From contig JAXDLH010000288.1 of assembly GCA_034666705.1 (NCBI GenBank), positions 7,432-71,431 of the forward strand: a stretch of 64,000 nt of DNA. The letters are read 5' to 3'. Of the stretch, positions 20,491 through 44,327 are shown piece by piece. Within the stretch, counting starts at the first letter, position 1; each line of letters opens with the position of its first letter. The notes under the pieces are model-generated. The model did no database searches and was not told the origin of the DNA. It was given only the letters and a program-made list of their open reading frames with translations. This stretch comes from Chloroflexota bacterium (GTDB lineage: Bacteria; Chloroflexota; UBA6077; SHYK01). Position numbers and translations under genes: made by a program.

Positions 20491-20838
20491 ATGAAGGGTG
20501 TTGGGACGCATCTCGTCCTCGAGCTCTGGGGCTGTAGCAATCTCAATTCGCCCGAGGTCATCGAACAGGCGCTGCGCGACGTCGTAGACGCCACCGGGGT
20601 GACACTCCTCGACCTCAAGGTGTACCCATTCTCTCCAATGGGTGTGACCGGTGCGGCCATTGTCGCTGAGTCGCACATCATCATCCACACCTGGCCGGAG
20701 CACGGTTACGCAGCGATCGACGTATTCACCTGTGGTGAAGAGCGTGACATGAAGGGCGCGGTCGAGGCCGTACGGGAACACTTCACTCCGGAGCGCGTGC
20801 AGATGATGAACATCCTGCGCGGCATCCTCGTTGACTGA
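20491..20838 (+). CDS. speH: S-adenosylmethionine decarboxylase proenzyme (small SpeH type)
   Basis: HLVLELWGC...VAESHIIIHTWPEHGYAAIDVFTCG carries the ES self-cleavage site and the HTWPE motif. Confidence 0.85.
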   Translation: MKGVGTHLVLELWGCSNLNSPEVIEQALRDVVDATGVTLLDLKVYPFSPMGVTGAAIVAESHIIIHTWPEHGYAAIDVFTCGEERDMKGAVEAVREHFTPERVQMMNILRGILVD

Positions 20839-21709
20839 GCCCTCGACGCCCCCCAGCGTGCGCGACGGCGACTGGTTCTTCGAGATCGACGACAGTGGCT
20901 ACGCGCAGGGCACGCGCGTTCGCCAACGGCTCCTCACCAAGCAGACCCCATTTCAGCGGCTCGAGATCCTGGAGTCTGAGGCATTTGGCCGCACCCTGGT
21001 GCTGGACGACGCACTCCAAACCACGGAGCGCGACGAGTTCATGTACCACGAGATGCTCGTCCACGTGCCACTCATGACCCACCCGGCCCCACAGCGCGTG
21101 CTCATCATCGGTGGCGGAGATGGCGGGTCATTGCGCCGGCTCCTCCAACATCGCGTGCCCGAGCCGATCCAGGTCGAGATCGATCGCGACGTGATCGACG
21201 CATGCAAGGCGCACATCCCAGCTGTTTCAGCCGGCGCCTACGACGATCCCGCGGCGCGCGTCATCGTGGGAGACGGTATTCAGTACATGCGCGAGCATCC
21301 GGGCGGGCTCGACGTCGTCATCGTCGACTCCACCGACCCCGTCGGTCCGGCTGTCCAGCTCTTCGAGGAGCCGTTCTACCAAGACGTGGCCCGCTCACTG
21401 GCGGATGACGGTCTGATGGTGGCACAGAGCAGCTCGCCGCTGTATATGGCCGATGAGCTGCGCAGCCAGGTGCACAACTTGCGCTCGGTATTTCCTATCG
21501 TGCGCACCTACCTCGGCATCGTCATGGGCTACCCAGGCGTGCTGTGGAGCTACTCTATTGGCTCGAAGCGCTACGATCCGCTCGACGCGACGCGGGAGTC
21601 CATCGCCGACCGGCTCGCCGCCAATAGTGTCGCTACCCGCTATTACACGCCGGACGTGCATCACGCGGCCTTCGCGCTGCCGCGCTTCATCGAGGACATC
21701 GTCTCCTGA
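20831..21709 (+). CDS. speE: spermidine synthase
   Basis: PF01564-type signature (VLIIGGGDGG...IVDSTDPVGPA). Overlaps the speH 3' end by 8 bp. Confidence 0.9.
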   Translation: MTEPSTPPSVRDGDWFFEIDDSGYAQGTRVRQRLLTKQTPFQRLEILESEAFGRTLVLDDALQTTERDEFMYHEMLVHVPLMTHPAPQRVLIIGGGDGGSLRRLLQHRVPEPIQVEIDRDVIDACKAHIPAVSAGAYDDPAARVIVGDGIQYMREHPGGLDVVIVDSTDPVGPAVQLFEEPFYQDVARSLADDGLMVAQSSSPLYMADELRSQVHNLRSVFPIVRTYLGIVMGYPGVLWSYSIGSKRYDPLDATRESIADRLAANSVATRYYTPDVHHAAFALPRFIEDIVS

Positions 21710-22581
21710 CCACTGTCCACTTCGTCCCACCTGCCCAGCCCTTCCTTGCGGCCAGCGATGATCCGAGCGTCGAGCCGCGAGCCATCATCATCGGCGCGGG
21801 CCTGGATCTCACCGAGTGCTACCGCAGCGGAACTGCCGCAGCGCCTGACCGCATCCGCGCAGTCTCCGACGTGCTCGAGAGCTACAGCCCGGAGCTGCAG
21901 GCCGATCTGGCAGAGCTGCCCCTCGCCGATTGGGGCAACGTACCGCTCGTTGGTCTCGATATGGATGCGGCCCTCGCGAACGTCGCCGACGCCGTAGAGC
22001 AGGCCGCTGCACGGGCCCTCCCGATCATGATCGGCGGCGAGCATACCGCTACTCTCGGCGCCGTCCGCGGACTGCAGCGGCTGCACCCCGGTCTCGTGGT
22101 GATGCACGTGGACGCCCATACTGACCTGCGCGACAGCTACCTTGGGTTCGAGATATCCCACGCGACGTTCATGCGGCGCGTGGTGGAGGAGCTTGGCATC
22201 GGCCACCTGGCTCAATACGGCATTCGGTCCGGCACGCGCGAGGAGCTCGAGCTTGCTCGCGGCTGCCTGCACTCCGGTCCGGGCCTCGACGTGGGCCGTA
22301 ACGCCCGTGACCGTATCCACCATCGTCCTGTTTACGTCACGATCGATATCGACGTCCTCGATCCGAGTGCGGCCCCCGGTACTGGCTGTCCGGAGCCCGG
22401 GGGGTGCACGTTTCGCGAGCTCGTCGCCTTCCTGCGCTCGCTTCGTGAGCTCAACGTCGTCGGCGTCGACGTCATGGAGGTCTTGCCCGCGGCCGACGTG
22501 AATGACATCACCTCTGCGGCAGCCGCCAAATTGGTGCGGGAAGCGGCGCTCGCGTTCGGTCTCCGAGCGCCGCGCGCCTGA
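21706..22581 (+). CDS. speB: agmatinase (arginase/ureohydrolase family)
   Basis: Mn-binding motifs are present (GGEHTATLGA, HVDAHTDL, DIDVLDP). The conserved N-terminus (AIIIGAGLDLTECYRSGTAAAPDRIR) is in frame upstream of the first GTG (21871) with no ATG/GTG/TTG available. CTG 21706 overlaps the speE TGA stop (CTGA). Confidence 0.7.
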   Translation: MTTVHFVPPAQPFLAASDDPSVEPRAIIIGAGLDLTECYRSGTAAAPDRIRAVSDVLESYSPELQADLAELPLADWGNVPLVGLDMDAALANVADAVEQAAARALPIMIGGEHTATLGAVRGLQRLHPGLVVMHVDAHTDLRDSYLGFEISHATFMRRVVEELGIGHLAQYGIRSGTREELELARGCLHSGPGLDVGRNARDRIHHRPVYVTIDIDVLDPSAAPGTGCPEPGGCTFRELVAFLRSLRELNVVGVDVMEVLPAADVNDITSAAAAKLVREAALAFGLRAPRA

Positions 22582-26021: not shown

Positions 26022-27299
26022 TTACGTGCTGGATGCGCTCGCGGAGGCAGACGCGGCTGTGGCAGGGGCATCATTGCTTGGCAGGGTGACGACGAAGCGC
26101 GTCCCCCCTTTGGGCGGTGAATCAGCGCGAATCTCGCCACCGTGTGACTCGACAATCTGGCGCGTTATGTAGAGTCCGAGCCCCATTCCTGATTTGTTCG
26201 TGTCCGCGCTGCCTCGGTAGAAACGCTCGAAGATCCGGTCGCGGGCCTCGGCTGGAATCCCAGCTCCCTCGTCGGTAACAGATAGCTCAATCTGGTCCCC
26301 GATCCGCCGCAGCACCGCGCGAATCTCGCCCCCTGCGGGGCTGTACTTAATGGCGTTATCGATCAAGTTCGTCAGCACCTGATCGATGCGTAGCGGATCG
26401 ACGACCGCATACAGCTCGTCCGGCGTGTCGACCACGATGCGATGCTCGTCCGCGAAGGTTTGCTCGTTTGCGGCGACGTCTCTGAGGAGGCGCACGAGCT
26501 CCGTGCGCTCTGGATTCAGCTCGAGGCGTCCCGCGCGAACCCGCGTGAGGTCGAGCATTTGCGTGATAAGCCGCGCGAGCTTGCCCGATTGCTGCTCGAT
26601 CACGTGCAGACCGCGGCGCATGCTATCTGCGTCGACCGCGTCGTCTCGCCCAAGGCGGCGGAGCATGAGTTGAGCTGAGCCGCGCAGGCTCGTGATGGGC
26701 GTCTTCAGCTCATGGGCGGCCATCGAGATGAACTCTTCGCGGATCTGCGTTGCTTCTTCGAGTTGGCGGTTCGTCTCTGCCAGTTCGTCGACGCTGTGCC
26801 GCAATTTGGCTGTGGCCTGGTCGACTCGCTCCTGGAGGCCTTCCGAGAGCGTCCGCAGCTTGCTGTTTGCCTCGTTCAACTCACCCAGTCGTTCGCGCAG
26901 CGCTCTGCCGAGGACGCCCCGCTCGATCGCCCGCGCCACCGTGGCCTTCAACTCATCGACGTGGCACGGTTTGATCAAGTAATCGTACGCGCCCTCACGA
27001 ATCGCGTCGATCGCGGACTCGAGCGAGGCATATCCGGTCAGCATCACGGACGGTGTCTCTGGCGACCGTTCCCGCAGCGCAGTCAGCAGCTCGAGACCGG
27101 ATGAGCCCTCGATGCGCAAGTCGGTCAAGAGCAGATCGAAGCGCTCATTGCGGATATGCGTCAACGCGTCGGCCGCATTCCCTGCGGCGACGACCTCGTA
27201 CCCCTCCTGCTCCAGGATTGCGGCGAGTGTCGTCAGGACGTTCTCCTCGTCGTCGACCACGAGCAGGCGTGGCGTCTCTGAGCCGAGCGCGGTGTTCAT
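26022..27299 (-). CDS. hybrid two-component protein: N-terminal receiver domain fused to HisKA/HATPase histidine kinase
   Basis: Receiver domain (LLVVDDEENV...DLLLTDLRIEG...MLTGY), a coiled-coil, the H-box AAHELKTPITSL, and the ATPase N/G boxes (NLIDNAIKYS, GMGLGLYI). Overlaps the upstream kinase by 4 bp. Confidence 0.8.
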   Translation of the reverse strand: MNTALGSETPRLLVVDDEENVLTTLAAILEQEGYEVVAAGNAADALTHIRNERFDLLLTDLRIEGSSGLELLTALRERSPETPSVMLTGYASLESAIDAIREGAYDYLIKPCHVDELKATVARAIERGVLGRALRERLGELNEANSKLRTLSEGLQERVDQATAKLRHSVDELAETNRQLEEATQIREEFISMAAHELKTPITSLRGSAQLMLRRLGRDDAVDADSMRRGLHVIEQQSGKLARLITQMLDLTRVRAGRLELNPERTELVRLLRDVAANEQTFADEHRIVVDTPDELYAVVDPLRIDQVLTNLIDNAIKYSPAGGEIRAVLRRIGDQIELSVTDEGAGIPAEARDRIFERFYRGSADTNKSGMGLGLYITRQIVESHGGEIRADSPPKGGTRFVVTLPSNDAPATAASASASASST

Positions 27300-29320
27300 T
27301 GATCACCCTCTGGCGGCAGGGCGATGATGAAGGTCGTGCCGTGGCCAGGAGTACTGCGAACCTTGATCTGGCCACCGTGATTTTGCATGATGCCCTGGCT
27401 TACCCAGAGCCCGAGGCCCGTGCCCTTCACGTCGCTCTTGGTGGAGTAGAACGGCTCAAAGATATGGGGCAGATGCTCCTCGAGGATGCCGGTGCCCGTG
27501 TCCTGAATCTGGACGAGCACGTACCGCCCCGCGAGAAACTCTGGGTCGGTCTCCCGGGAAAGCCAGGTGGAGATTTTCAGCTTGCCGCCATCCGGCATCG
27601 CCTGCTGGGCGTTCAAAATCAGGTTCAAGAACACCTGCTTGAGCTGATCCGCGGGAGCGAGCACTGGCGGCACATCGCGGTCGAGATTGAAATCGACGGT
27701 CATATTGTGGCGCCGCAACTCGCGATCGAGCAGCGACACCGATTCCTCCAGCACCGTATTCACATTCGTCGGCACTTTGACCACCGCCGGCCGGTAGAAG
27801 CCAAGCATCTGTTGGATGATGCCTGACACCCGGTCCGTCTCCTTGCTGGCGATCTGCAGGAATTTGGCGTTCGGGTCGTCCGGCGCCGTGCGTGACACGA
27901 CGAGGTAGAGTGCGTTCTTGATCGCCTCGAGCGGGTTATTGATCTCATGGGCGACCGTAGCGGCGAGTCGACCCACCGCGGCGAGCTTCTCCGACTCGAA
28001 GAGCTGCTGCTCGACGGTGCGGCGCTCGAGCTCGCGAATCTTCGTCAGGTCGTGGAGAATAGACACCAGCGCAGTGGTCTGTCCCAGCTCGTCTACCACC
28101 TCGGTCGCCATGACGCTCATCGTGAGGTTCTCGCCAGTAGTCGGATCGACGAGCTGGATCTCTCCGCGCTGCTCCCGTGGGGCCTCGAGACGAAGCTGGG
28201 AGAGGAACGAGCTAAGCTTCGCTTCGTTGGCCAGCAACACCGTCGACCGGACCCGCACCTCGCGCCGCTCGGTCTGCAGCAGGCGTCCGGCGGGCTGGTT
28301 CATCAAGATGATCTCGCCCGCGGCGTCGGTAACCACGATCGGATCCGCCACGTTGGCCAGAATCAGGTTCAGTCGATCCCGCTCGCGCTGCGCCTCGTCC
28401 CCAGCGTTCTGCAGGTCGGTCAGAATGCGCTGCAACTGGTCGGCCGCGCGCCGCAGGTCGGTAACGTCGCGCAACACGGATACGAGGCCACGCTCCCCCG
28501 TGCGCAGGTTCGTCGCCTGCTGGCAGATCACCTCGAAGAGCAGCTCGGTACCCTCGAGGGGATCGACGAGGGTAAGCTCGCGCGCCAGTCCCGCGCCTTG
28601 ATCGATCGCGAAGCTGGAGAGCGCGGCGGTGAAGAGAAAATAATTGAGCTCAATCGCGCGGCGCTTGCCGGGGCTGTCATCAGGATTGGGCTTGAGCAGC
28701 CGCTCCGCGTGGATGTTGTAGAACATGATGTTGTTCTGCTCATCGCTGAGCATCACCGGGTCATGCACGGCGTTCAGCATCCACCATAGCCATTCTTTCT
28801 CAATGGCGTGCTGTTCACCGGACTCACGCAGGCGCTTCGCCTCGACACGCTCGGCCACCGTCACCACGAGGCGTCCTGCATATGGCAAGAGCTCGTTCAC
28901 CTCGGCTTCGGTAATCGGCCGATCCTTATCGACGATGAGGACCCCTGAGGCAGGGAGCAGCGGCACCGCCGCGAACGCCAGCATGCCGCAGTCGGCGTAG
29001 TACACCCGGTCCGCCTCAGGGATACGGCCATCCCGCAGCGCATCGTCGACGCGCAGCGGTTTGCCGCTCACGAACGCCTCGCGCAGGGGACCCCGCAGCT
29101 CCTCATTCGGCTCGCGCAGCGCCGCGATGAGCTCGTGAGGAACGTTGACGCCGACCGCGCCCTCGACGATTCCCAATTCGCCGTCGATAAGCGCGACGAA
29201 CGCGCGGTTGTAGCCAAGCGCACGCGCTAACTCGTCGAGCGTCGGCACCACCAGCTCATCCAGCTCGGTGAGACGAGCCGCGAGCCCACGCGTCTCATAG
29301 AGCTCAAGCAGGTCACGCAT
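27296..29320 (-). CDS. cytoplasmic GAF/PAS multi-sensor histidine kinase
   Basis: N-terminal GAF-like region, PAS-like repeats, the H-box VAHEINNPL and an HATPase_c domain (DTGTGI...GTGLGLWVSQGI). There are no transmembrane segments. Confidence 0.8.
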   Translation of the reverse strand: MRDLLELYETRGLAARLTELDELVVPTLDELARALGYNRAFVALIDGELGIVEGAVGVNVPHELIAALREPNEELRGPLREAFVSGKPLRVDDALRDGRIPEADRVYYADCGMLAFAAVPLLPASGVLIVDKDRPITEAEVNELLPYAGRLVVTVAERVEAKRLRESGEQHAIEKEWLWWMLNAVHDPVMLSDEQNNIMFYNIHAERLLKPNPDDSPGKRRAIELNYFLFTAALSSFAIDQGAGLARELTLVDPLEGTELLFEVICQQATNLRTGERGLVSVLRDVTDLRRAADQLQRILTDLQNAGDEAQRERDRLNLILANVADPIVVTDAAGEIILMNQPAGRLLQTERREVRVRSTVLLANEAKLSSFLSQLRLEAPREQRGEIQLVDPTTGENLTMSVMATEVVDELGQTTALVSILHDLTKIRELERRTVEQQLFESEKLAAVGRLAATVAHEINNPLEAIKNALYLVVSRTAPDDPNAKFLQIASKETDRVSGIIQQMLGFYRPAVVKVPTNVNTVLEESVSLLDRELRRHNMTVDFNLDRDVPPVLAPADQLKQVFLNLILNAQQAMPDGGKLKISTWLSRETDPEFLAGRYVLVQIQDTGTGILEEHLPHIFEPFYSTKSDVKGTGLGLWVSQGIMQNHGGQIKVRSTPGHGTTFIIALPPEGDQ

Positions 29321-29359
29321 GACCTAGATCGTCTCCCTCATAGGCATGCTGCATCTCCC

Positions 29360-29641
29360 TTACGTCAGGGGTTCGCGGCGGGCCTCCTGGGGCGGCACAA
29401 CCTCTTCCCGAGGGGCCGGCGCCGCAATCTGCGGACGTGCCACCGGCGAGGTAATACCGACCGCCTCCGCGTACTTCAGGTACGTATCGATCGAGGCGAC
29501 GACGATGCGCGCCTCGACGGTGATGAGGTCGATGCCGACCAGCGAGATGCGCACCCACGCATCGATCACGATGCCTTTATCGAGCACCCGATCGAGCACG
29601 TCGATGAGGCTCGTACCTCCGGGATGTCGCTCTACGGCCAT
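29360..29641 (-). CDS. gvpA: gas vesicle structural protein GvpA
   Basis: [51 protein letters not shown] is the canonical GvpA core. Confidence 0.9.
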
Positions 29642-29643
29642 GA

Positions 29644-30006
29644 TTACCTCCTGCCTCTCGGCTGTCGCTGGCGTGTGGGACGAACGGGAGCGGGCTCTGG
29701 CACTGCCGCGCCGGCGACCTGCCGCTCGAGGGCGGCAATCCGCGCCTCCAGGGCGCTAGCGGATTCCACCTCGTCCATTGCGGTGGTACTGAGAAAGTTG
29801 TCGCGTTTCCACCAATCGAGTCCGATCTCCTGCGCTTTGTCGATTGAGCATACGAGCAGACGGATGCGGACGGTGAGCAGCTCGACGTTGGCCAGCGAGA
29901 CCCGGATGTCACCAGCCACGACCAACCCCTTGTCCAGGACGCGGTCAAGAATATCGACGAGGCTCGTCGCGGCAGGTTGATCGCTGCGGCGGGGCTCCAT
30001 CATCAC
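29644..30006 (-). CDS. gvpJ: gas vesicle protein GvpJ (GvpA family)
   Basis: [52 protein letters not shown] matches GvpJ. Confidence 0.8.
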
Positions 30007-30659
30007 AGCAGTTGTCCAAGCGGCCCCAGGTCGACGTTTAGATCCGCGTCAGTCAGGCCGAACTGATCGCGAATCTCGGCGAGTTTCTCCTCAAGCTGCA
30101 TGAGCGCCAGCCCCATCTGTTCTATCTGGGCGTCGGAGAGGCCGGTTCCCTCCATGCGGCGGAGCGCCTGGTGCTCCAGCACCTGACGCAGCAGCTCCAC
30201 GAGCGTCAAGACCAGGCGCGCGAGGCTCGACTCAGGTCGCTCTCCTTCCGGGATCACCACCGGTGCGACCCGCCGTGCCGGCCGGCCGCTCGCAGGGTCC
30301 CCAACGGTTGAAGGCGCGCCGAGGATCTCCCCTGGCTTGACCCTTGCAGATGGCCTCGCGCCCGGTCGCGCCAGGTGCGCTGCGAGCATATCCCCATGTC
30401 GCGGACGCACCGGAGATCGCGGCGTCATTGCGTCACGGCTCCCACCGTCCTCCTCCATCGCTCGCCGCATCGTTTCGACGGACGAGACCACAAGGTTCAG
30501 GCCAAGGTACACGAGATCGACACCCCCGAGTGAGACGACGGCCTGACCGGCGAGCACTGCACCGTTGTCGAGCAGGCCATTGACGGCGTCGACGAGCGCG
30601 ATCCGCTCGGCGAGGGCCCCCTCAAGCTGCGCCACGTTGGCCCTCCACCTTGCGGACAA
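30003..30659 (-). CDS. gvpK: GvpA/J-family N-terminal domain fused through a disordered linker to a GvpK domain
   Basis: The N-terminal ~65 aa are GvpA/J/S-like (LVDAVNGLLDNGAVLAGQAVVSLGGVDLVYLGLNLVVSSVE). The C-terminal ~80 aa match GvpK (LARLVLTLVELLRQVLEHQALRRMEGTGLSDAQIEQMGLALMQLEEKL...[13 protein letters not shown]). It is a single uninterrupted 218-codon ORF. Confidence 0.7.
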   Translation of the reverse strand: MSARWRANVAQLEGALAERIALVDAVNGLLDNGAVLAGQAVVSLGGVDLVYLGLNLVVSSVETMRRAMEEDGGSRDAMTPRSPVRPRHGDMLAAHLARPGARPSARVKPGEILGAPSTVGDPASGRPARRVAPVVIPEGERPESSLARLVLTLVELLRQVLEHQALRRMEGTGLSDAQIEQMGLALMQLEEKLAEIRDQFGLTDADLNVDLGPLGQLL

Positions 30660-31512
30660 ACGAATAGGGCGGCCAAGGACCGCTCAACTCCAGGTCGAGC
30701 CCGGCCGTCTGCGCTCGATCCAGGAGGCCGGCGAACACGGCGCCGAATGCCTCACGATGGTCTCGATCCACGAGGAACGCGAGTTTTGCGACGAGTGGAT
30801 GCGGATCGGGAGTCTCTGATACTACGGCATCCTGTTGCACGTCAACGCTCGCCGCGCCCAATTCCCGGGCCGCGCCGCTGAGCTCCTCGTCGAGGAAGCC
30901 GGATGCCTCAGTGGCGAGCAGCGACTCGCGACGTCGCCGCAGCAGATAGGCCTTGCCGGGCGCGCTGCGCTCGATCTCCACGGCCAGCTCGCGCAGAACC
31001 GCGCTGTTTTGTTCCGCAGCTCGCCACACGCGCGCCGGATCCGCATACGCCTTCAGCCCCCATTCCTCCCGGTCGGCGACCTTTTCAAGCAATGCGTGCA
31101 GCTCACTCTCCTGGCCTTCCAGCATGGCGCGCACTCCCTCCGGGCTGCGATAGACCGCCCCGAAGCCCAGCGGCACGATGGGTCCCGCCTGCTCGAACAG
31201 CGTGCGCACCACCGCCTCGTGGCGTACCGCGTATTCAGCAAGCTTCGGCAGATCGGCCGTCAGTGCGTTCAACGGCTCTTCGTCGAAGACGGCGGCAGGC
31301 ACAAGACTGGTCGCTGCGATCAGGCCAGCATGGTTGATGCCAGTGACAGAGGCAAAGGGCACAATACCGAGCACATTACGGCCCGCCAGCACATCCTTCG
31401 AGCTAGGGCCGGCCAGAAGCACGCCGTACACGTACAGCAGCTCGTCGCGTTTCGTGGCCGCAGATCGAGCGGCGCTCTGGCGCGGGGTGCCGGCTTCCAT
31501 GTGACCTGCCAT
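30622..31512 (-). CDS. gvpL: gas vesicle protein GvpL/GvpF family
   Basis: The LYVYGVL start motif and the SGPWPPYSF C-terminal motif are typical of GvpF/L. Confidence 0.8.
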   Translation of the reverse strand: MAGHMEAGTPRQSAARSAATKRDELLYVYGVLLAGPSSKDVLAGRNVLGIVPFASVTGINHAGLIAATSLVPAAVFDEEPLNALTADLPKLAEYAVRHEAVVRTLFEQAGPIVPLGFGAVYRSPEGVRAMLEGQESELHALLEKVADREEWGLKAYADPARVWRAAEQNSAVLRELAVEIERSAPGKAYLLRRRRESLLATEASGFLDEELSGAARELGAASVDVQQDAVVSETPDPHPLVAKLAFLVDRDHREAFGAVFAGLLDRAQTAGLDLELSGPWPPYSFVRKVEGQRGAA

Positions 31513-31520
31513 TGGGGGAT

Positions 31521-31772
31521 TCAGCGCTGCGCTTGCCGCTGTCGAAAGGCACGCGCGGCACGGAGCCGCGCCATGATCTCAGCTTCGGCTTCGGTGTATT
31601 CGTCCTCGGTGATCTCGCCATCGTCGAGTCGGACTTGCAGCAGGAGCAGGTCTTCGCGAATACGCTCCTCGTCGTACAGCTCACGGTCGGCCATATCGCC
31701 GATGGTATTGAAGACGAATTTGACGCCGGCGACTGGCGCGGTCAGTGGTGCCAACAGCAGCTTGAGCAACAT
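31521..31772 (-). CDS. gvpG: gas vesicle protein GvpG
   Basis: 83 aa with the GvpG pattern (LLL.PL..P...V.....E.YDEERIREDLLLLQVRLDDGEITEDEY). Confidence 0.7.
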   Translation of the reverse strand: MLLKLLLAPLTAPVAGVKFVFNTIGDMADRELYDEERIREDLLLLQVRLDDGEITEDEYTEAEAEIMARLRAARAFRQRQAQR

Positions 31773-32599
31773 CAGGACATGGCCCCGGCGCGCTCGAGCT
31801 TGAGCCGAATGTTCACGAAATTGTAAGGTGGCCAGGGGCCGGTGTACTGAAATCGCAGCTTGCCCTCATATCGTTGCGCGATCTCCTGTACCTTCTGGTC
31901 GAACTCAGTCGATTTATCCCGCTCGACGAGGAAGGCGGCATTCAGGATCATCTTGTCGCCGATTGGCTTGTTGTGCCGCGAGGCCGTCGCACAATCGCGG
32001 AGGTGGTCGTAGACCTCTCGCACGTACGTGTCAGACCGTTCCGCGAGGGCCTGCTCGACGAGCCGGCCAAGCTGCATCCGGGCAAAATAGGTTGACGCGA
32101 GCCGATTCGAGAGGATCTCTTCCTTCAGCCGGCGGATGTCTTCGCTCTCCTGCTCGACTTCCTTCAGCACGGTTTCAGGGTCCCAGTTGACCTTTAGACC
32201 AAACTCGATCTTATCCTTGAGTTTGCGCAATACGTCCTGAAGCGCTTCAGACGTGTCCTTCAAGAACTCCACAACGTCATCTTCCGTGCGGAAAACGGTG
32301 CCGAAGCTCATCGGGATGACCGTGAACTCCTTCATTACGGTTTCAATGGCATGCTCATGGGCGAGCGCGTTCTCGCGTGTGGGGTCGTACATCACGACCG
32401 GAGTGTCCGATACCACTGCGGCAAGTGCGCCACGGTGAATCGTATAAAGCTCGTCGTTTCGGCCGCCGATCCCGAGCGGGCCAAAGCCCTGCGGGGCGTC
32501 GCACTCGATGATGCAGTACACGTACTTGCCCTCATCGGCCACCCGTGGCGATCCCGAATCTTCCGTGACGACGGCCGCGGCACGCTCATCCAGATTCAT
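31772..32599 (-). CDS. gvpF: gas vesicle protein GvpF
   Basis: KYVYCII start motif and the C-terminal TGPWPPYNF; GvpF/L fold family. Confidence 0.85.
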   Translation of the reverse strand: MNLDERAAAVVTEDSGSPRVADEGKYVYCIIECDAPQGFGPLGIGGRNDELYTIHRGALAAVVSDTPVVMYDPTRENALAHEHAIETVMKEFTVIPMSFGTVFRTEDDVVEFLKDTSEALQDVLRKLKDKIEFGLKVNWDPETVLKEVEQESEDIRRLKEEILSNRLASTYFARMQLGRLVEQALAERSDTYVREVYDHLRDCATASRHNKPIGDKMILNAAFLVERDKSTEFDQKVQEIAQRYEGKLRFQYTGPWPPYNFVNIRLKLERAGAMS

Positions 32600-32740
32600 C
32601 TCTTGCCCTCACGAGGAATTCGCGGCTGCGGTCCCCGGGCGGCAGCCCCAGCCATGATACCGGTTGCATATCAACTCGTGGAAGATATGAAAAGCACGGG
32701 CACCGCAAATCGGACGGTCCAAACCATGTACCAGTGGCAA

Positions 32741-32769
32741 TTGATTTTCATTCGTACGTGGCGTATACT
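32741..32769 (+). promoter_or_regulatory. sigma70-like promoter TTGATT-17 nt-TATACT for the aro leader
   Basis: -35 TTGATT (32741-32746), a 17-nt spacer, and -10 TATACT (32764-32769), inside an AT-rich divergent intergenic region. Confidence 0.5.
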
Positions 32770-32800
32770 GCGCCTATTCTGTGCAGGAAGGTCAACTGGC

Positions 32801-32878
32801 GTGAGCCTCGACCAGCACGCATTCGCCTACGCGTACTACTTTAGCTGGCGGCACGGAGGGATGCCGGCGGTCAGGTAG
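32801..32878 (+). CDS. aromatic-rich leader peptide (MSLDQHAFAYAYYFSWRHGGMPAVR)
   Basis: 25-codon ORF starting at a GTG that has AGGAAGG 9 nt upstream. Of codons 8-16, six are Phe/Tyr/Trp (F-A-Y-A-Y-Y-F-S-W). It sits between the promoter and a terminator hairpin upstream of DAHP synthase. Confidence 0.55.
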   Translation: MSLDQHAFAYAYYFSWRHGGMPAVR

Positions 32879-32910
32879 CGCTGATCTTCCACAACCCAGG
32901 TGCCGCGGAA

Positions 32911-36694: not shown

Positions 36695-37149
36695 CCACGA
36701 TCCTGGTCCTCCATGGGCCGAACCTGAGCATCCTCGGCCGCAGGCAGCCGGAGATCTACGGCACCACGACGCTCGAGACAATCGACGAGGCGCTGCGCAG
36801 TCGTGCCTCAGCCTGGGGCTGGGAGATCATCGCCGTCCAATCAAACCATGAGGGCGCATTGATCGACACGATCGAGAGCCACTACGAGCGTATCGAAGGC
36901 GTGCTCATCAACCCGGGCGCCCTGACCCACTACGGCCTGTCGCTGCGTGACGCACTCGCGGCGCTGACGGTGCCCATCGTCGAGGTACACCTCTCCAACA
37001 TCCACGCGCGCGCCGAGGAGTGGCGTCACCACTCCATCACCGGCGAAGTCGCCAAAGGGATCGTGTCAGGCTTCGGTTGGCGCTCCTACCTGCTCGGGCT
37101 CGACGCGCTCCGCGGCATCATCGACCCGGGGGCTAGCCCGCCCGCGTGA
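36691..37149 (+). CDS. aroQ: type II 3-dehydroquinate dehydratase
   Basis: ILVLHGPNLSILGRRQPEIYG...INPGALTHY...EVHLSNIHARE match AroQ. The ATG overlaps the aroB stop (ATGA). Confidence 0.9.
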   Translation: MTTILVLHGPNLSILGRRQPEIYGTTTLETIDEALRSRASAWGWEIIAVQSNHEGALIDTIESHYERIEGVLINPGALTHYGLSLRDALAALTVPIVEVHLSNIHARAEEWRHHSITGEVAKGIVSGFGWRSYLLGLDALRGIIDPGASPPA

Positions 37150-38787
37150 GCGGCGCCGCGGTCGTGGCCGCTCTGTCGCTGGCGCTTCATCCGAAGCCTC
37201 GACCGGCTCGCTCGACTGAACCTCCGCTTCCTGAGCCTCGCCCATCGGAAGCGCGAGTGGAGCATCGTGGCCGTTTGTGGTTATGAGCTCATCGTCGGAG
37301 CTGCTTGGGAGCTCTTCCGTTGCGGAGCTCTCTTCTGTCACGGCGCTCACATCGGTTCGCGCAGTGCCCCGGCCTCGTGACCGGCGACGCGGCCTCGGTC
37401 GCTCCGGCGGCGCCTCCGCGCTCGTGCCACTCTCGCCGGCAATTTCCGGCGACGATTCGATCTCGACATCATTGGCAGCGACTGGCTCGATCCCATTGGT
37501 CCCGGGCGGCTCTTCGAGCGCCCGCATGACGAGGGGGTGCCTGCGATTCAACCGGAAGATGTTGATGTCGCGGTACTCGCCGGTGATTCGATCGAGAATG
37601 GTCCGCGTGTCGGTGAGGAACATGCCGTCCTGGATCGCTTGATCGACGAGGTCGCTCAACTCGTTGAGCGTCATCGGGACGAGGCGAGACTCTGCGGCTC
37701 GATTCACGATGTAGTTGAACGACATGAATGGGCTGCCCTGCTCCAGCAGATCGACGAACCGCACGAGCTTCGTGAGACGTTCCTCGTCTACGGGATCGAG
37801 CTTGACCGTGGACCGCTGGACGACGGGATTCCGCAATGGCGGAGGAGGCGGGGTTTCTCCAATCCGCTGCACGGCCTCCTCGGCCTCGCGCTCAACCTCT
37901 TGCGGCGTCTCGACTGCGAGGCCGGTGTCGATCTCCTCGCCCGGCATGTACACGCGATCCGTGAGGCCAACAGTTTGGGTCTTCACGATCCCGCGCCGCT
38001 CGGCCTCCTTCATAAAGTCCTTGAACTTCGAGTAGCCATAGGCCTGCTCGTCGAAGCTGCCAAGGCGGCTGGCCAGGAGCAGCTTGACCTGCGCGAACAC
38101 GTTGGGCCGCCGCTTCTCGCGTACGTACTTCACGACCTCGCCGAGGACCTTGAACGCCTCGTCAACGGCGACGAGAGGTGCGGCCACGGGAGCTGGCGCC
38201 GGTGTGGGTGCATGAGGCGGCGCCGTGCTGGCCGCCACCAGCGGCGCCGGGCGCCGCGCAGGGGCCGGATCGACGTCCACGTCGTACGCGATGTACTGGT
38301 CGGCGCTGCTGGTGAGCATCCAACTCGTGTTCCACGAGGCGCCGATGATGACCACGCGCTTGCCGTGCGTGCGCAGGGTATTGACGAGATGGATAAAGTC
38401 GCCGTCGCCGGTGACAAAGACGAACGTTGCCACGCTGGGGTTCAGGTAGGCGAACTCCACCACGTCGACGGCGAGCTTGATGTCCACGGAATTCTTGCGG
38501 CGGGGCAGTCCGTCGGTCGTGGCATCGCCGGGCCCGACGAAGATCGTGGGGACGTAGATCGGCTCGATGCCCACGGAGTAAAGATCGTTGGGATCGCGGA
38601 GGTTGTGGCCCTCCTGCCAGTTGGCGTACGCCTTAGCGGTCACCACCCGGCCAAATCGCCCGGCCGCATCCTTGAGCGCCTGAACGTTGGGAAGCCGGTT
38701 ATCGCGGTTAAGCAGGCTGTACTTGATGTTCTCCCAGTCGATGAACATCGCGACGTCGCCGGAGGGCGACGACGAGGGAGCAGTCAA
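37066..38787 (-). CDS. NYN (LabA-like) domain plus OST-HTH/LOTUS domain protein with Arg/Ser-rich C-terminal repeats
   Basis: N-terminal NYN fold (MFIDWENIKYS...FVFVTGDGDF), a central OST-HTH-like segment, and a C-terminal acidic region with a duplicated ERPRPRRRSRGRG. The start is taken at TTG 38787, which has GGAGG 7 nt upstream. Confidence 0.6.
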   Translation of the reverse strand: MTAPSSSPSGDVAMFIDWENIKYSLLNRDNRLPNVQALKDAAGRFGRVVTAKAYANWQEGHNLRDPNDLYSVGIEPIYVPTIFVGPGDATTDGLPRRKNSVDIKLAVDVVEFAYLNPSVATFVFVTGDGDFIHLVNTLRTHGKRVVIIGASWNTSWMLTSSADQYIAYDVDVDPAPARRPAPLVAASTAPPHAPTPAPAPVAAPLVAVDEAFKVLGEVVKYVREKRRPNVFAQVKLLLASRLGSFDEQAYGYSKFKDFMKEAERRGIVKTQTVGLTDRVYMPGEEIDTGLAVETPQEVEREAEEAVQRIGETPPPPPLRNPVVQRSTVKLDPVDEERLTKLVRFVDLLEQGSPFMSFNYIVNRAAESRLVPMTLNELSDLVDQAIQDGMFLTDTRTILDRITGEYRDINIFRLNRRHPLVMRALEEPPGTNGIEPVAANDVEIESSPEIAGESGTSAEAPPERPRPRRRSRGRGTARTDVSAVTEESSATEELPSSSDDELITTNGHDAPLALPMGEAQEAEVQSSEPVEASDEAPATERPRPRRRSRGRASPRVDDAAERVEPEQVGAPTEA

Positions 38788-38874
38788 TATGTGCCTCCAG
38801 GAGTTTTCGACAAAAATGGGCAAGTGTCTGGCGGAGGCCGGCGCGACAGTCCGCAACCTCGGCAATCCGCTGCC

Positions 38875-39800: not shown

Positions 39801-40970
39801 GTGGCTACCCGACACGCGCCGCCTCCTCGGATCGGCATCAATGCGCAAAAGCTCTCGCTGAGCCAGTCCTACCACGCGGCAGGCTCGAGCCGCTACGTCC
39901 ACAACCTCGTGCGCGAGCTGCGCGCGCTGGATGCGGAGGAGCAGTTCCTCGTCTACGCTCGCGAGAAGGACGTACCGCCCGACCTGGCGTCGACGGCGAA
40001 CTTTCGCGTCGTTGGCACGCGTGCGCCGACGGATCGCCCCATTGCCCGCATCCTGTGGGAGCAACTCAGGCTGCCGCGGCTGCTTCGTCACGACCACGTC
40101 ACACTCTTTCATGGGGCAATCAATGCTTTGCCGCTCGCGTGGGAGGGCCCGCGCATCGCGACCATTCTCGATCTGACCTTCCTGCGGATCCCACAGGCGT
40201 TCAATCGCAGCAATCGGCTGTACTTGACCTGGATGACCCGCTACGTCGCGCGGCATGCCGATCGCATCATCACCATCTCCGAGGCTTCGCGGCGCGATGC
40301 TATCGAGCTCCTGGGGGCTGCCCCAGCGCACGTAGTGGCCATTCCGCTGGGCGTGGACCCGCAGTTCCAGCCGATGAGTGATCATCTTGCCGTCGCTCGG
40401 TTCCGGGAGGCCAATGGCTTGCCGGAGCACTTCATCCTGCATCTGGGCACCATTGAGCCGCGGAAGAATCTGCTGCGTCTCATCGACGCCTACGCCGAGC
40501 TGAGACGCCGCGGGGCGACCGACTGGCCTCTGATCCTGGCCGGTGGCCGTGGCTGGGGAGACCAACCGATATTCGACCGCGTCGCCGCGACCGGGCTCGA
40601 CGGGGCCATCCGTTTTGCCGGTTTTGTGCCGGATAGCGACTTGCCCCTCTGGTACAATGCGGCGTCCCTCTTCACCTATCCCAGTGAATATGAGGGGTTC
40701 GGGCTGCCGGTGCTCGAGGCGCTGGCCTGCGGTACCCCAGTCGTAGCCTCGAATAGCTCCTCTTTCCCGGAGGTAGTGGGAGATGCCGGGATCCTTGTGG
40801 ACCCTGCCGATACCCGGGATATGGCGAACGGCATTGAGCGGGTGCTCGCCGATGATGCATTGCGGGCCCATTATGCAAGCGCCGGGCCGGAGCGCGCGCG
40901 CCGTTTCAGCTGGCGCGCCACGGCGGAACGCACGCTCGCGGTGTATCGCGAGGTGATGGCAGCGACATGA
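39801..40970 (+). CDS. glycosyltransferase family 4
   Basis: GT4 C-terminal signature (EYEGFGLPVLEALACGTPVVASN). Confidence 0.8.
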   Translation: MATRHAPPPRIGINAQKLSLSQSYHAAGSSRYVHNLVRELRALDAEEQFLVYAREKDVPPDLASTANFRVVGTRAPTDRPIARILWEQLRLPRLLRHDHVTLFHGAINALPLAWEGPRIATILDLTFLRIPQAFNRSNRLYLTWMTRYVARHADRIITISEASRRDAIELLGAAPAHVVAIPLGVDPQFQPMSDHLAVARFREANGLPEHFILHLGTIEPRKNLLRLIDAYAELRRRGATDWPLILAGGRGWGDQPIFDRVAATGLDGAIRFAGFVPDSDLPLWYNAASLFTYPSEYEGFGLPVLEALACGTPVVASNSSSFPEVVGDAGILVDPADTRDMANGIERVLADDALRAHYASAGPERARRFSWRATAERTLAVYREVMAAT

Positions 40971-42448
40971 ACGTGTTCCCGGGTGCCGCCGCCGAAGCCG
41001 TTGGGCGGCCCGCGAGTCGGGCCCATCCGAGCAACCGCTGGCTTCGACGTTTCCAGCTCACGGCTCTCGTGGTTTCTGACCTCATTGCCGTCAACCTGGC
41101 GTTTGCGGCTGCTTACTATCTGCGCTACCACCTGCAGTTGGGCGGCGACGTACCGGGCGAGAGTTACGTCGACTGGACCATATACCTGCCGGTGCAGGCG
41201 CTCTTCATGGTGCTTTGTCTCCTCGGCTACCAGGTCCGCAAGAGTTACGCGCTGCCGCGCGGCTCGTCGTTGGCAGGAGAGGGCGAGGCGCTCCTCAGCA
41301 GCACGACCGTTGCGGCGATGGTCACCTTCACGCTCGTCTCGCTGATCCGCTACCCCGCATCGTCGCGGCTGACGCTGATTTATGCCTGGGGCCTCGCGTT
41401 CGTCCTGACGTTCGCGGGCCGTTGCATCATCCGTGCGCTGCGCGCCCAGTTGCACAGCACCGGGTTCGGCATCGAGCGCGTCGTCGTCGTCGGCAACAAC
41501 CGGCTCGCACGCATGGTGATGCAGATGCTGGCTCAGCAGTCGTACCTCGGGTACCGGGTCGTAGGGTTCGTCGACGAGGCGTCGCGTTCGGACTTCGGCC
41601 GGTTCCGCGCGCTCGGCGGCATTCATCGCCTTCCCACCCTGATCGGCGAGCATCAGATCGATCGCGTCATCGTGGCGCTGCCTGCGGCGCAGCACAATGA
41701 CATTCTGTGGGTGCTCGATCACTGCCGGCACGACGGCGTGAGCTTCAGCTTGGTCCCCGACCTGTTCGAGCTCCGGCTGAGCCACGTCGAACTCGACGCG
41801 GTCAACGGCATACCCCTGTTCGCACTCAACGAGACCAACATCGCGGGCTGGAACCTATTCGTCAAGCGCATGCTGGATGCGGTCGTCAGTCTGCTCATCC
41901 TTTCGCTCCTCAGCCCACTCTTCCTCCTCATCGCGATCGCCATCAAGCTGGACTCGCCCGGTCCCGTGTTCTTCCGCCAGACGCGTCTCGGCAAAGACGG
42001 CCGACCCTTCACCTGCTACAAGTTCCGCTCCATGCGCGCCAACGCTGAGCAAGAGCGCGAGGCACTCAACGAGTTGAATGAGGCGGATGGGCCGCTCTTC
42101 AAGATTCGGCGTGATCCCCGGTTAACGCGCGTGGGGCGGATCATCCGGCGCATGAGCATCGACGAGTTCCCGCAATTGTGGAACGTGCTCCAGGGTGACA
42201 TGAGCCTCGTCGGTCCCCGCCCGCCCATTCCCGCCGAGGTCGAGCAGTACGAAGACTGGCACCGCCGGCGGCTCGAGACGGTGCCAGGCATTACGGGGCT
42301 CTGGCAAGTTAGCGGCCGCAGCGAGCTGAGCTTCGACGAGATGGTCATGCTTGACATCTACTACATCGAGAACTGGTCACTCACGCTCGATCTCCAGATT
42401 CTGGCGCGCACCATTCCGGCTGTGCTTCGCACCGCGGGCGCGTTCTAG
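40967..42448 (+). CDS. polyprenyl-phosphate sugar phosphotransferase (WbaP / bacterial sugar transferase family)
   Basis: Multi-transmembrane N-terminus plus the C-terminal bacterial sugar transferase domain (KFRSMR...[18 protein letters not shown]). Confidence 0.85.
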
Positions 42449-42452
42449 GGTC

Positions 42453-43583
42453 GTGCGCGTCGCCCTCGTCCACGACTACCTGAACCAGTACGGCGGCGCG
42501 GAGCGGGTGCTCGAGGTCTTCCACGAGCTCTACCCCAACGCACCCGTGTACACCTCGCTGTACGAGCCGACCGCCATGCCCGCACACTTTCGCGGCTGGG
42601 ATATTCGCACCTCCTTCATGCAGCGGATCCCGCTCGCGCGCGCACACCACCGCCATGCACTGCTGCTCTACCCACTTGCCTTCGAGTCGTTCGATCTCAG
42701 CAGCTACGACGTTGTCATCTCGAACTCCAGCGCGTGGTGCAAAGGGGTGAAAACGCCGCCGGGCACCATGCATCTCTCCTATTGCCTCACGCCGATGCGG
42801 TTCGCGTGGAATCTAGATGCCTACGTCGACCGCGAGCGGCTCGGCAGATCGGCGCGCACGATACTGCCGACGCTGATGCACGGCCTGCGGCGTTGGGACG
42901 TCGCCAACTCCCGACGCGTCGATCGCTTCGTCGGAATCTCGCGCGTGGTGGTCGAGCGCATCCGCCAGTGCTACGGGAGGGATGCCGACCTGCTGATGCC
43001 GCCAGTGGACGTCGAATCAATTCCGCTCAGCCGCGAGGTTGGCGACGAGTACCTCGTGGTCTCTCGGCTGATTCCGTACAAGCGGATCGACCTCGCGATC
43101 GAGGCGTGCAACCGACTCGGCGCTCCGCTCTGCGTCGTCGGCGACGGGCGGGACCGGGCGAGCCTCGAGGCGCTGGCCGGGCCATCGGTACGATTCGCGG
43201 GCTTTGTCGCGGATCAGGAAGCCCGTGCGTACCGCGCGACGTGCCGGGCGTTTCTTTTCCCTGGTGAGGAGGATTTCGGCATTGCGCCCGTCGAGGCAAT
43301 GGCAGCAGGGCGGCCCGTGATCGCCTTTGCCGGCGGCGGCGCGCTCGATACCGTCGTCGATGGGGAGACCGGCGCGCTCTTCAGCCCCCAGAGCGCAGAT
43401 GCGCTCGCGGCAACGCTCGCGGCGTTCGATCCCACCCGATTCGACCCCGAGCGCATTCGGGCACATGCGCTCGGTTTCGCGACCTCGACGTTCAAGAAGC
43501 GCTTCGCGGACCTCGTCGACGATGCGTATCGGGCGCACCGTGCTTCGGTTCGGTTTGCCCAGACCGAAAGGGCGCCGGTATAG
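42453..43583 (+). CDS. glycosyltransferase family 4
   Basis: The start VRVALVHDYLNQYGGAERV and the segment EDFGIAPVEAMAAGRPVIA fit GT4. GTG start 5 nt after the WbaP stop. Confidence 0.8.
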   Translation: MRVALVHDYLNQYGGAERVLEVFHELYPNAPVYTSLYEPTAMPAHFRGWDIRTSFMQRIPLARAHHRHALLLYPLAFESFDLSSYDVVISNSSAWCKGVKTPPGTMHLSYCLTPMRFAWNLDAYVDRERLGRSARTILPTLMHGLRRWDVANSRRVDRFVGISRVVVERIRQCYGRDADLLMPPVDVESIPLSREVGDEYLVVSRLIPYKRIDLAIEACNRLGAPLCVVGDGRDRASLEALAGPSVRFAGFVADQEARAYRATCRAFLFPGEEDFGIAPVEAMAAGRPVIAFAGGGALDTVVDGETGALFSPQSADALAATLAAFDPTRFDPERIRAHALGFATSTFKKRFADLVDDAYRAHRASVRFAQTERAPV

Positions 43584-43625
43584 TTCGCGCCGGCACCGCC
43601 ATCCGGGGTGTCCCCGAGGTCGACG

Positions 43626-44327
43626 ATGGACCTGCATGATGCCGTTGCCATTTTGCTGCGACGCTGGCCAATCATCGCCGCGGTCACAATCCTCGCCCTG
43701 GTGTTCGCCACGGCGTTCAGCCTCCGCGGGCCCAGGGCCTACGAAGCATCGATGCGGCTGGCGGTAAGTGTCACCGACGAGGGAAGCGCCACTTCCGAGA
43801 GCGACGCACCGCCCTACAGCTACTACCGCGACTATTACCTCTGGCTGTCGTCCGAGTACCTGGCCGACGACCTCGCGCAGCTCCTCAAGAGTCAGTCATT
43901 CGGGACCGACGTCGGCCAGCAGCTCGGCGAAGATGCCCGCACGCTGGACCTGTCCAGTCTGACGACGACCAAGAAGACGCATCGGATGCTGGACGTAGCT
44001 GTGCAAGCGCCATCGCCGACGCGTGCCCTGCAGCTCGCGTCCGCTATCGCCGAGCTCGTTCGCACCCAGAGCCCGCGGTATCTGGGTGCGCTCGCCTCCT
44101 CGGGCGGACGGGTCGCGGTGATCGACCAGCCTTCGGTGCACGCCGCGACCACGGTTGGATCCCAGGTGGCGGACGTCGGTCTGCGCGGTCTACTCGGGCT
44201 GCTCGCCGGCCTCTTCCTGGCGTTTGTCGTAGATTACGTCGACTCAACCATTCGAGATGCGGGCGACGTCCGGCGGGCGCTGGGACTGCCGGTGCTGGGA
44301 GAGATTCCGGCTGGCCCACGGCCATGA
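43626..44327 (+). CDS. Wzz-like polysaccharide chain-length determinant / co-polymerase
   Basis: N-terminal transmembrane segment, periplasmic domain and C-terminal transmembrane segment; the Wzz N-terminal motif (LLRRWPIIAAVTIL) is present. Confidence 0.6.
   Translation: MDLHDAVAILLRRWPIIAAVTILALVFATAFSLRGPRAYEASMRLAVSVTDEGSATSESDAPPYSYYRDYYLWLSSEYLADDLAQLLKSQSFGTDVGQQLGEDARTLDLSSLTTTKKTHRMLDVAVQAPSPTRALQLASAIAELVRTQSPRYLGALASSGGRVAVIDQPSVHAATTVGSQVADVGLRGLLGLLAGLFLAFVVDYVDSTIRDAGDVRRALGLPVLGEIPAGPRP

Follow-up and report, generated by a model that had tools for sequence, protein, structure and literature searches.

Do the two histidine kinases that directly follow a gas-vesicle (gvp) gene cluster in a soil bacterium form a control circuit dedicated to it? 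The locus lies in a 64-kb stretch of DNA, hereafter the window, from the metagenome-assembled genome of an uncultured soil Chloroflexota bacterium. It comprises eight minus-strand genes in the order gvpF, gvpG, gvpL, a GvpS/J-like–GvpK fusion, gvpJ, gvpA and two kinase genes, HK1 and HK2. All eight are intact ORFs whose identities are backed by Pfam matches, and no intergenic gap exceeds 39 nt. Listed from the upstream border, the features are:

32600..32899, no strand assigned: intergenic region between gvpF and a divergent DAHP-synthase gene; presumed promoter region of the eight-gene unit
31772..32599, minus strand: gvpF, GvpF/L family, 275 aa; Pfam PF06386 (GvpL_GvpF), E = 2.7e-78
31521..31772, minus strand: gvpG, 83 aa; Pfam PF05120, E = 2.4e-21, above the gathering score
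30622..31512, minus strand: gvpL, a second GvpF/L paralogue, 296 aa; Pfam PF06386, E = 5.7e-51
30003..30659, minus strand: GvpS-like–GvpK fusion; Pfam PF00741 (aa 21–59) and PF05121 (aa 139–218) in one ORF
29644..30006, minus strand: gvpJ, GvpA/J/M family, 120 aa; Pfam PF00741 (Gas_vesicle), E = 4.9e-17
29360..29641, minus strand: gvpA, shell protein, 93 aa; PF00741 and NCBIfam PRK09371 GvpA
29321..29359, minus strand: gvpA–HK1 spacer, 39 nt, with a GGGAGA Shine-Dalgarno-like motif and no terminator
27296..29320, minus strand: HK1, soluble GAF-PAS-PAS-HisKA-HATPase histidine kinase, 674 aa; Pfam GAF, PAS, HisKA and HATPase_c
26022..27299, minus strand: HK2, receiver-HisKA-HATPase hybrid kinase, 425 aa; Pfam Response_reg, HisKA and HATPase_c

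The preliminary description of this DNA had the gvp genes lying head-to-tail with overlapping or abutting boundaries, and the eight ORFs bear this out, with junctions of −38 to +8 nt among the gvp genes. gvpF and gvpG overlap by 1 nt, 8 nt separate gvpG from gvpL, gvpL overlaps the S–K gene by 38 nt when the longest ORF is taken, S–K overlaps gvpJ by 4 nt, and 2 nt lie between gvpJ and gvpA. The short gap between gvpA and HK1 also holds, although it reads as 39 nt and not the 40 nt originally counted, and the 4-nt overlap between the HK1 stop and the HK2 start is present as ATGA. The presumed promoter region is the sole non-coding stretch longer than 40 nt that adjoins the module upstream; no sigma-70-like site was found on its minus strand, and inspection by eye revealed no motif that it shares with the corresponding regions of related loci.

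An internal terminator, which would set the kinases apart on a separate transcript, was not detected between gvpA and HK1, and the spacer RNA is no more stably folded than its shuffled versions (z = −0.46). In 105 of 109 related loci, the earliest potential HK1 start falls 0–149 nt past the gvpA stop, at a median of 18 nt. From this arrangement we infer one operon-like unit whose eight genes would be co-transcribed.

We then compared the locus with its relatives. Seeding with HK1 gave 80 metagenome loci with HK1 relatives of 43–84% identity; counting only loci with room for the neighbouring gene, gvpA immediately precedes HK1 in 68 of 68 and the hybrid kinase immediately follows it in 67 of 67. 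Among loci seeded with GvpF, the kinases follow gvpA in all those from Chloroflexota (6/6), Pyrinomonadaceae (20/20) and Blastocatellia (4/4), and in none of the 15 from Thermoanaerobaculia. Their absence from these related clusters indicates that the kinases are accessory and not needed for vesicle assembly. The full eight-gene set recurs with different neighbours at 71%, 61% and 52% identity, and flanking genes vary between related loci, so the module has been kept while its neighbourhoods changed; it has probably moved between phyla. Because the arrangement recurs in more than 100 independent loci, it is far beyond chance. In Pyrinomonadaceae, a single-domain receiver and a STAS protein are inserted between the two kinases, and the kinase segment thus behaves as a signalling cassette. 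In none of the HK1-seeded loci with room for a neighbour, down to 43% identity, do the kinases sit beside unrelated genes. The proposal that the kinase pair is dedicated to the gvp genes is thus upheld in two phyla with differing flanks, and because the kinases, wherever they turned up in soil Chloroflexota and Acidobacteriota, sat beside gvp genes, they most likely form a dedicated gas-vesicle control circuit. We found no published description of this module of gvp genes and two kinases; the circuit is so far undescribed, while cluster-encoded regulators and gvpN-less clusters are already known.

HK1 was originally described as a cytoplasmic GAF/PAS sensor kinase of 674 aa. Its Pfam domains agree with this, and no transmembrane segment was found, the hydrophobic maximum falling within the GAF domain. 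An AlphaFold model of residues 155–440 (pLDDT 87) contains two PAS domains, the second visible at residues 170–300. HK1 carries the H-box histidine and the N, G1, F and G2 boxes of the HisKA class, and the H-box AHE.NNPLEA together with LNL.LNA, D.G.GI, IFEPF and GTGLGLWV is at least 95% conserved in 102 orthologues. Across the same set, the first PAS domain is as conserved as the kinase core, and the GAF domain is not. The closest solved kinase cores are those of ZraS and KinB. A fold search with the PAS region matched oxygen, redox and light sensors at only 14–19% identity, and HK1 could be assigned neither cofactor nor ligand. HK2 consists of a complete receiver followed by a complete kinase core, as in hybrid receiver-kinases. 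In 66 orthologues its receiver conserves LvVDDE, LtDL, LTGyAS and KP, corresponding to the acidic pocket, phospho-acceptor Asp, Thr and Lys, and conservation extends to the H-box HEL.TP and the ATP-lid motifs.

The six gvp genes supply seven Gvp domains (GvpA, GvpJ, GvpS, GvpF, GvpL, GvpG and GvpK), the core common to all gas-vesicle systems. Pfam assigns PF06386 twice, PF05120 and PF05121 once each, and PF00741 three times, with every match exceeding its gathering score; the core accessory set is therefore gvpF, gvpL, gvpG and gvpK plus two further GvpA-like paralogues (J, M/S). GvpA scores 117.3 bits against the NCBIfam PRK09371 cut-off of 100 and retains the conserved hydrophobic core of the shell protein, with residues 1–70 aligning to Anabaena flos-aquae GvpA (PDB 8GBS, E = 1.5e-26) and residues 1–64 to the Bacillus megaterium protein (7R1C). 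The gvpJ product falls under the NCBIfam cut-offs for both GvpJ and GvpA, and the gvpL product under that for GvpL. GvpF is 62–80% identical to GvpF of 80 genome loci from Chloroflexota and Acidobacteriota, and GvpA is 66–95% identical across most related loci. The gene previously labelled J/K is resolved as a fusion of a Gas_vesicle domain and a GvpK domain, joined by a low-complexity linker of about 80 aa. The fusion also occurs in 9 related loci; in 69 others, a third GvpF/L gene stands between separate S and K genes. The locus would presumably produce gas vesicles.

The reported absence of gvpN and gvpO from the 64 kb is confirmed by two empty searches. Pfam detects neither GvpN nor GvpO among the approximately 48 further ORFs of the window (approximately 56 in all), where the only AAA+ protein is FtsH (62204–64000), and tblastn of the window with two GvpN, three GvpO, GvpC, GvpH, GvpI and Hsp20 queries returned no matches. 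GvpC is poorly conserved, and a divergent analogue is possible. An ArsA-type ATPase is likewise absent from the window, and 163 related loci, including flanks reaching as far as 8–10 kb, contain neither gvpN nor gvpO. According to a review, all clusters conserve gvpA, gvpC and gvpFGKLN (PMC9501494).

These features are best accommodated, we think with reasonable though not high probability, by a minimal gvpN-less gas-vesicle operon with its own two-kinase cascade, running from HK1 to HK2 to an unlinked regulator. In such a cascade, the highly conserved first PAS domain of cytoplasmic HK1 would sense a cue from inside the cell, HK1 would autophosphorylate its H-box histidine, and HK2, whose gene appears translationally coupled to HK1, would probably take up the phosphoryl group on its receiver aspartate. 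The state of the receiver would switch the HK2 kinase, which would act on a response regulator encoded elsewhere, and this regulator would set transcription of the gvp operon, kinases included, closing a feedback loop. The kinases would thereby control buoyancy; what is sensed (light, oxygen or redox) and in which direction control runs are proposed on the same conditional footing. A search for a cognate DNA-binding response regulator gene was negative: no response regulator with a DNA-binding or any other output domain is encoded across the ORFs of the window, and none with an output domain lies consistently near related loci. The step from HK2 to a regulator is for this reason unsupported, and such a regulator may be encoded elsewhere in the genome.

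The missing output would also fit kinases that exert no transcriptional control and act post-translationally, phosphorylating or binding Gvp proteins, or driving or gating assembly as ATPases that partly replace GvpN or ArsA. The Chloroflexota clusters lack both GvpN and the ArsA-type ATPase of acidobacterial clusters, the kinase genes close the structural operon, so that their products would be made together with the Gvp proteins, and a first PAS domain conserved like the catalytic core would suit a conserved protein partner. Yet both kinases keep complete canonical two-component motifs, receiver included, which points to His-Asp phosphotransfer, and since Blastocatellia have ArsA and the kinases while Thermoanaerobaculia have ArsA only, there is no either/or pattern of ATPase versus kinases. 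To our knowledge, histidine kinases acting on Gvp proteins have no precedent. We regard this mode of action as improbable, and give the same low weight to its fullest form, a self-sufficient ATPase-free system (without GvpN, GvpO, GvpC and ArsA) whose assembly or collapse is governed by a kinase cascade acting directly on Gvp proteins; were it true, soil bacteria would exercise fast post-translational control over a protein organelle. Somewhat less doubtful, but still unlikely, are kinases that control another regulon, such as a stress or redox response, and ride on the gvp operon for co-expression only, the gvp genes not being their target. Their position downstream of gvpA in one apparent transcript means that the gvp promoter would set the kinase level, and the output regulator is unlinked; the strict association over two phyla, to 43% identity and through changing flanks, is nevertheless difficult to account for without a vesicle-tied function, and on this reading too the kinases would remain part of the gas-vesicle programme, the two accounts differing only in direction.

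A third reading takes the locus for a leftover, decaying or silent, that has stopped making vesicles, the kinase linkage being inherited synteny. It draws on the missing gvpN, gvpO and gvpC, two of which are on the review's list of universally conserved genes, on the lost third GvpF/L gene and the fusion of S to K, and on Streptomyces coelicolor, whose gvpN-less cluster is reported to yield no detectable vesicles (PMC4982088), a precedent that counts against vesicle production here. All eight ORFs are nevertheless intact, here and in more than 100 loci; the GvpA identities are high, the catalytic motifs are kept, and the module has been retained despite changed neighbourhoods and probable movement between phyla. 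We consider decay very unlikely, although we know of no cultured relative that makes vesicles.

Returning to the dedicated two-kinase circuit, its principle works elsewhere. In Serratia sp. ATCC 39006, GvrA, GvrB and GvrC, dedicated regulators encoded within the gas-vesicle cluster as the kinases are here, are each needed for gvpA1 transcription (PMC4982088). Compared by description, Serratia uses the sigma-54 NtrC-like DNA-binding activator GvrA, whereas no ORF of the window has a Sigma54_activat or DNA-binding response regulator domain. The Serratia regulators lie in a second operon with gvpH, gvpZ, gvpF2 and gvpF3, whereas the kinases here end a single structural operon and one of them is a receiver-kinase hybrid; Serratia also has gvpN, gvpC and gvpV (PMC4982088). 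Haloarchaeal GvpD and GvpE (Halobacterium p-vac and c-vac) are likewise cluster-encoded gvp-specific regulators, but GvpE activates transcription and is antagonized by GvpD, neither belongs to the two-component proteins, and no homologue of either occurs in the window or the 163 related loci. The claimed distinction from both systems therefore stands.

The actinomycete gvpOAFG-JLSK clusters (Streptomyces; PMC9501494) share with this locus a soil host, the absence of gvpN and gvpC, and the core families A, F, G, J, L, S and K. The gene order does differ, as proposed, but the layouts are not wholly unrelated, since S directly precedes K in both, overlapping in Streptomyces and fused here. Actinomycete clusters begin with gvpO, which this locus lacks, and gvpA is near the start there and the last gvp gene here, where J follows K; the locus thus falls outside the actinomycete type, though it matches in gvpN absence and S–K adjacency. 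The Streptomyces locus examined has no adjacent kinases and protein identities of only 31–61%. The closest gvp-protein relatives are the acidobacterial clusters (Castillo and Saier 2010, PMC2963123), with GvpF 62–71% identical, a common order F-G-...-L-S-...-K-J-A and, in Pyrinomonadaceae and Blastocatellia, gvpA followed by the same two kinases, HK1 and the hybrid. Unlike the window, they place a tandem ArsA-like ATPase of 600–685 aa between gvpG and gvpL and separate S from K by a third GvpF/L gene, and some add receiver and STAS genes. Their published description mentions the ArsA link and not the kinases (Castillo and Saier 2010, PMC2963123).

Gas-vesicle control is largely unknown outside haloarchaea, Serratia and a few cyanobacteria, and in two dominant soil phyla the module provides a circuit of sensor kinase and receiver-kinase that is compact, widely conserved and open to testing. 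Its six gvp genes, 3.3 kb without GvpN, GvpO, GvpC or ArsA, are about the smallest natural set seen. If vesicles are made, the view of GvpN as universally conserved would need revision, and engineers of acoustic reporter genes would find the six-gene set appealing. Uncultured soil Chloroflexota and Acidobacteriota commonly carry gas-vesicle genes, which reopens the old question of the role of this organelle in soil.

The module lies on an 80.8 kb contig of a Chloroflexota metagenome-assembled genome, where reading of the ORFs places eight genes head to tail on the minus strand from 26022 to 32599, with gas vesicle (gvp) genes leading into two histidine kinases.

Genes of the gvp-kinase module, with Pfam assignments
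31772-32599, minus: gvpF (GvpF/L family, E 2.7e-78)
31521-31772, minus: gvpG
30622-31512, minus: gvpL (second GvpF/L)
30003-30659, minus: S-K fusion (gvpS-like and gvpK), 218 aa, with a Gas_vesicle (GvpA/J/M-type) domain at aa 21-59 and GvpK at aa 139-218
29644-30006, minus: gvpJ-like
29360-29641, minus: gvpA
27296-29320, minus: HK1, 674 aa, GAF-PAS-HisKA-HATPase histidine kinase
26022-27299, minus: HK2, 425 aa, receiver-HisKA-HATPase hybrid kinase

GvpA scores above the NCBIfam GvpA cut-off and can be aligned with the cryo-EM structure of Anabaena GvpA (8GBS) over residues 1-70. The gene left as gvpJ or gvpK in the preliminary description is a single ORF carrying both a Gas_vesicle and a GvpK domain. 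All junctions within the module are overlaps or gaps of at most 39 nt; gvpA and HK1 are spaced by 39 nt, and HK1 and HK2 share an ATGA overlap. At the gvpA-HK1 junction there is neither a terminator-like site nor RNA structure of unusual stability, in keeping with the tight linkage first noted.

More than 100 full-length relatives of HK1 (NCBI protein MEA2641112.1) share 50-77% identity with it; all those labelled with a taxon come from Chloroflexota or Dehalococcoidia metagenome-assembled genomes. Three relatives located by exact-sequence look-up (71%, 61%, and 52% identity) each lie directly behind the same gvp genes and are followed by a receiver-kinase hybrid, in surroundings entirely unlike those of the window. 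Seeding an unbiased scan of metagenome contigs with HK1 gave 80 loci (43-84% identity). gvpA is directly upstream of HK1 in 68/68 of these with enough upstream sequence, and the hybrid kinase is directly downstream in 67/67, which supports the dedicated kinase pair suggested from the sequence alone, its relatives not being found beside unrelated genes. In 78 of 109 loci, the distance from the gvpA stop to the earliest possible HK1 start is 0-49 nt. A second scan, seeded with GvpF in species-representative genomes, gave another 80 loci, with HK1 located behind gvpA in every locus from Chloroflexota (6/6), Pyrinomonadaceae (20/20), and Blastocatellia (4/4), and in none of 15 from Thermoanaerobaculia. 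This strict adjacency, and its absence from Thermoanaerobaculia, make the kinase pair an accessory that specifically accompanies this type of gvp cluster in two phyla. In L003 (58-17462), from a Chloroflexota contig of 1.35 Mb, the module together with a PMT_2 and an MFS gene separates the beta and epsilon genes of ATP synthase; the synthase genes there are fragmented, probably by frameshifts of the long-read assembly.

The cluster is minimal. Pfam searches of the ~48 further ORFs in the window (64 kb of the 80.8 kb contig) reveal no GvpN, GvpO, or ArsA-type ATPase, and AAA+ proteins are represented by FtsH alone, at the right edge. Likewise, tblastn with GvpN, GvpO, GvpC, GvpH, GvpI, and Hsp20 from annotated Octadecabacter, Halobacterium, and Streptomyces gvp loci finds no match in the window or any of 163 related loci, which bears out the reported absence of gvpN and gvpO from the 64 kb; GvpD and GvpE are also without a match in the window and these loci. 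Clusters lacking gvpN are already known from actinomycetes, whose gvpOAFG-JLSK layout (PMC9501494) is a precedent and has the S-before-K order in common with the window. In Chloroflexota, gas vesicles have been described only in the phototrophic Chloroflexales, which carry gvpN (PMC7332563).

Most Chloroflexota-type loci read F-G-L-S-F′-K-J-A-HK1-HK2, where F′ is a third GvpF/L gene. In 69 other loci (including L009, L094, and L096) S and K are 600-1200 nt apart with this gene between them, whereas in the window and nine related loci S is fused to K and F′ is lost. The window therefore holds the most reduced form of the module. The 80-aa linker between S and K retains no detectable similarity to GvpF/L, and we rejected it as a remnant of the lost gene. 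Acidobacterial loci follow the order F-G-[tandem ArsA-type ATPase]-L-S-[third GvpF/L]-K-J-A, with further insertions in Pyrinomonadaceae.

Additional genes in acidobacterial loci
L012 11153-13210, L026 11120-12922, and 68 other acidobacterial loci: tandem ArsA/GET3-type ATPase
L012 18572-19021 and 18966-19433: single-domain receiver and STAS (anti-sigma-antagonist-like) genes

The ATPase (600-685 aa) separates gvpG from gvpL in every acidobacterial gvp locus and is absent from the window and all Chloroflexota-type loci; it may take the place of GvpN in chaperoning the hydrophobic shell protein. ArsA-containing gvp clusters are already known in Acidobacteriota, the association having been published in 2010 without mention of the kinases (PMC2963123). 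The receiver and STAS protein are inserted between HK1 and the hybrid kinase in Pyrinomonadaceae, with STAS present in 19 loci. This stand-alone receiver shares 57% identity with that of the window HK2, and the pair hints at a partner-switching output in that lineage.

The flanking genes of the window are unrelated to the module: a CitMHS/TrkA-C transporter gene follows 136 nt downstream on the same strand, and a divergent shikimate-pathway operon lies upstream. A few kb downstream, past the transporter gene, is a polyamine operon (20491-22581; S-adenosylmethionine decarboxylase, spermidine synthase, agmatinase), then an MFS transporter. The window also carries a polysaccharide synthesis cluster (39801-47559) with two GT4 glycosyltransferases, an initiating sugar transferase, two Wzz-like chain-length proteins, a ParA-like tyrosine-kinase-type ATPase, and a nucleotidyl transferase and dehydratase (RmlA/RmlB-like). 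A 599-aa NYN-domain protein (predicted RNase; 37066-38865, minus) ends in a Pro/Ala/Glu-rich low-complexity tail of ~400 aa. Rfam matches above gathering score are limited in the window to a tRNA-Leu (anticodon TAA; 12332-12417, minus) and a bacterial class A RNase P RNA (13409-13708, minus; 132 bits).

Both kinases retain their catalytic features. The H-box of HK1 (AHE.NNPLEA) and its N, G1, F, and G2 boxes hardly vary among 102 orthologues, and its kinase core is akin to the AtoS, ZraS, and NtrB group. Conservation across 66 HK2 orthologues covers the acidic pocket of the receiver, its phospho-acceptor Asp, Thr, and Lys, and the H-box HEL.TP. Neither kinase has a membrane segment. HK1 residues 170-300 have no Pfam match in the window protein, and an AlphaFold model (pLDDT 87) shows them to be a PAS domain (PAS1) that forms a tandem with the PAS domain already annotated. 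PAS1 equals the catalytic core in conservation across the 102 orthologues, and the GAF domain is poorly conserved. Foldseek neighbours of the tandem-PAS region are tandem-PAS oxygen, redox, and light sensors (DosP, Brucella LOV-HK, FixL, NifL, and MmoS), at only 14-19% identity. The tandem PAS has no His in its F-alpha helices and no conserved Cys; with the haem ligand and LOV Cys missing or unconserved, haem or LOV-type sensing by HK1 is unsupported, and neither model nor neighbours indicate another ligand. An adenylate/guanylate cyclase with DUF5939 (646 aa; 58529-60469, minus) might supply a cyclic nucleotide as ligand for a GAF domain like the one in HK1.

We looked for an output around the module. 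The window encodes no response regulator with an output domain by Pfam, so the cognate DNA-binding partner that the preliminary description suggested looking for did not emerge there, and receiver-domain matches around the module in related loci are sporadic (OmpR-type, single-domain, and unrelated hybrid kinases). Comparison of 107 regions upstream of gvpF reveals no shared promoter or operator motif, and their flanks differ; good sigma-70 boxes occur in some relatives, not in the window. Clustering of flanking ORFs within 2.5 kb gave only housekeeping genes (uracil-DNA glycosylase, MutY-like) and an XRE-type HTH protein with an alpha/beta hydrolase, placed in convergent orientation immediately behind HK2 in 14 close relatives (L113 5001-5885, minus, and 13 others). 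The latter pair is absent from the window and is probably shared local synteny, not part of the module. Correlations of identity to the window between kinases and Gvp proteins are weak (rho 0.03 to 0.29; negative for F versus HK2, rho -0.32) and uninformative on co-evolution, since the distance to the window is much the same for most loci.

The architecture, in which a soluble sensor kinase is translationally coupled to a receiver-kinase and no output domain is present, fits a two-tier cascade that, judging from sequence, probably controls gvp through a regulator encoded elsewhere. The parts list, conserved residues, and linkage are observed directly; from these we infer that HK1 would set the phosphorylation state of the HK2 receiver, which would gate HK2 kinase activity toward the unlinked regulator. 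This regulator would act on the predicted gvp promoter within the 300 nt that precede gvpF. The circuit would also feed back on itself, the kinase genes standing at the end of the unit that holds the gvp genes. The kinases might instead serve a different regulon, which we consider unlikely, or act post-translationally on Gvp proteins, which appears somewhat less likely again. Least probable is that the cluster is a silent remnant, since the ORFs are intact and the motifs conserved in more than 100 loci.

Cluster-encoded gvp regulators are known elsewhere: in Serratia, GvrA (NtrC-like), GvrB, and GvrC are all required for gvpA1 transcription (PMC4982088), a system set beside the window kinases here by description, and haloarchaea encode GvpD and GvpE. 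For kinases linked to gvp in Chloroflexota or Acidobacteriota, full-text searches of the literature yielded no description, and the kinase-gvp module is therefore apparently undescribed. The kinase pair is real and strongly conserved as a regulatory companion of a minimal gvp cluster in soil bacteria.
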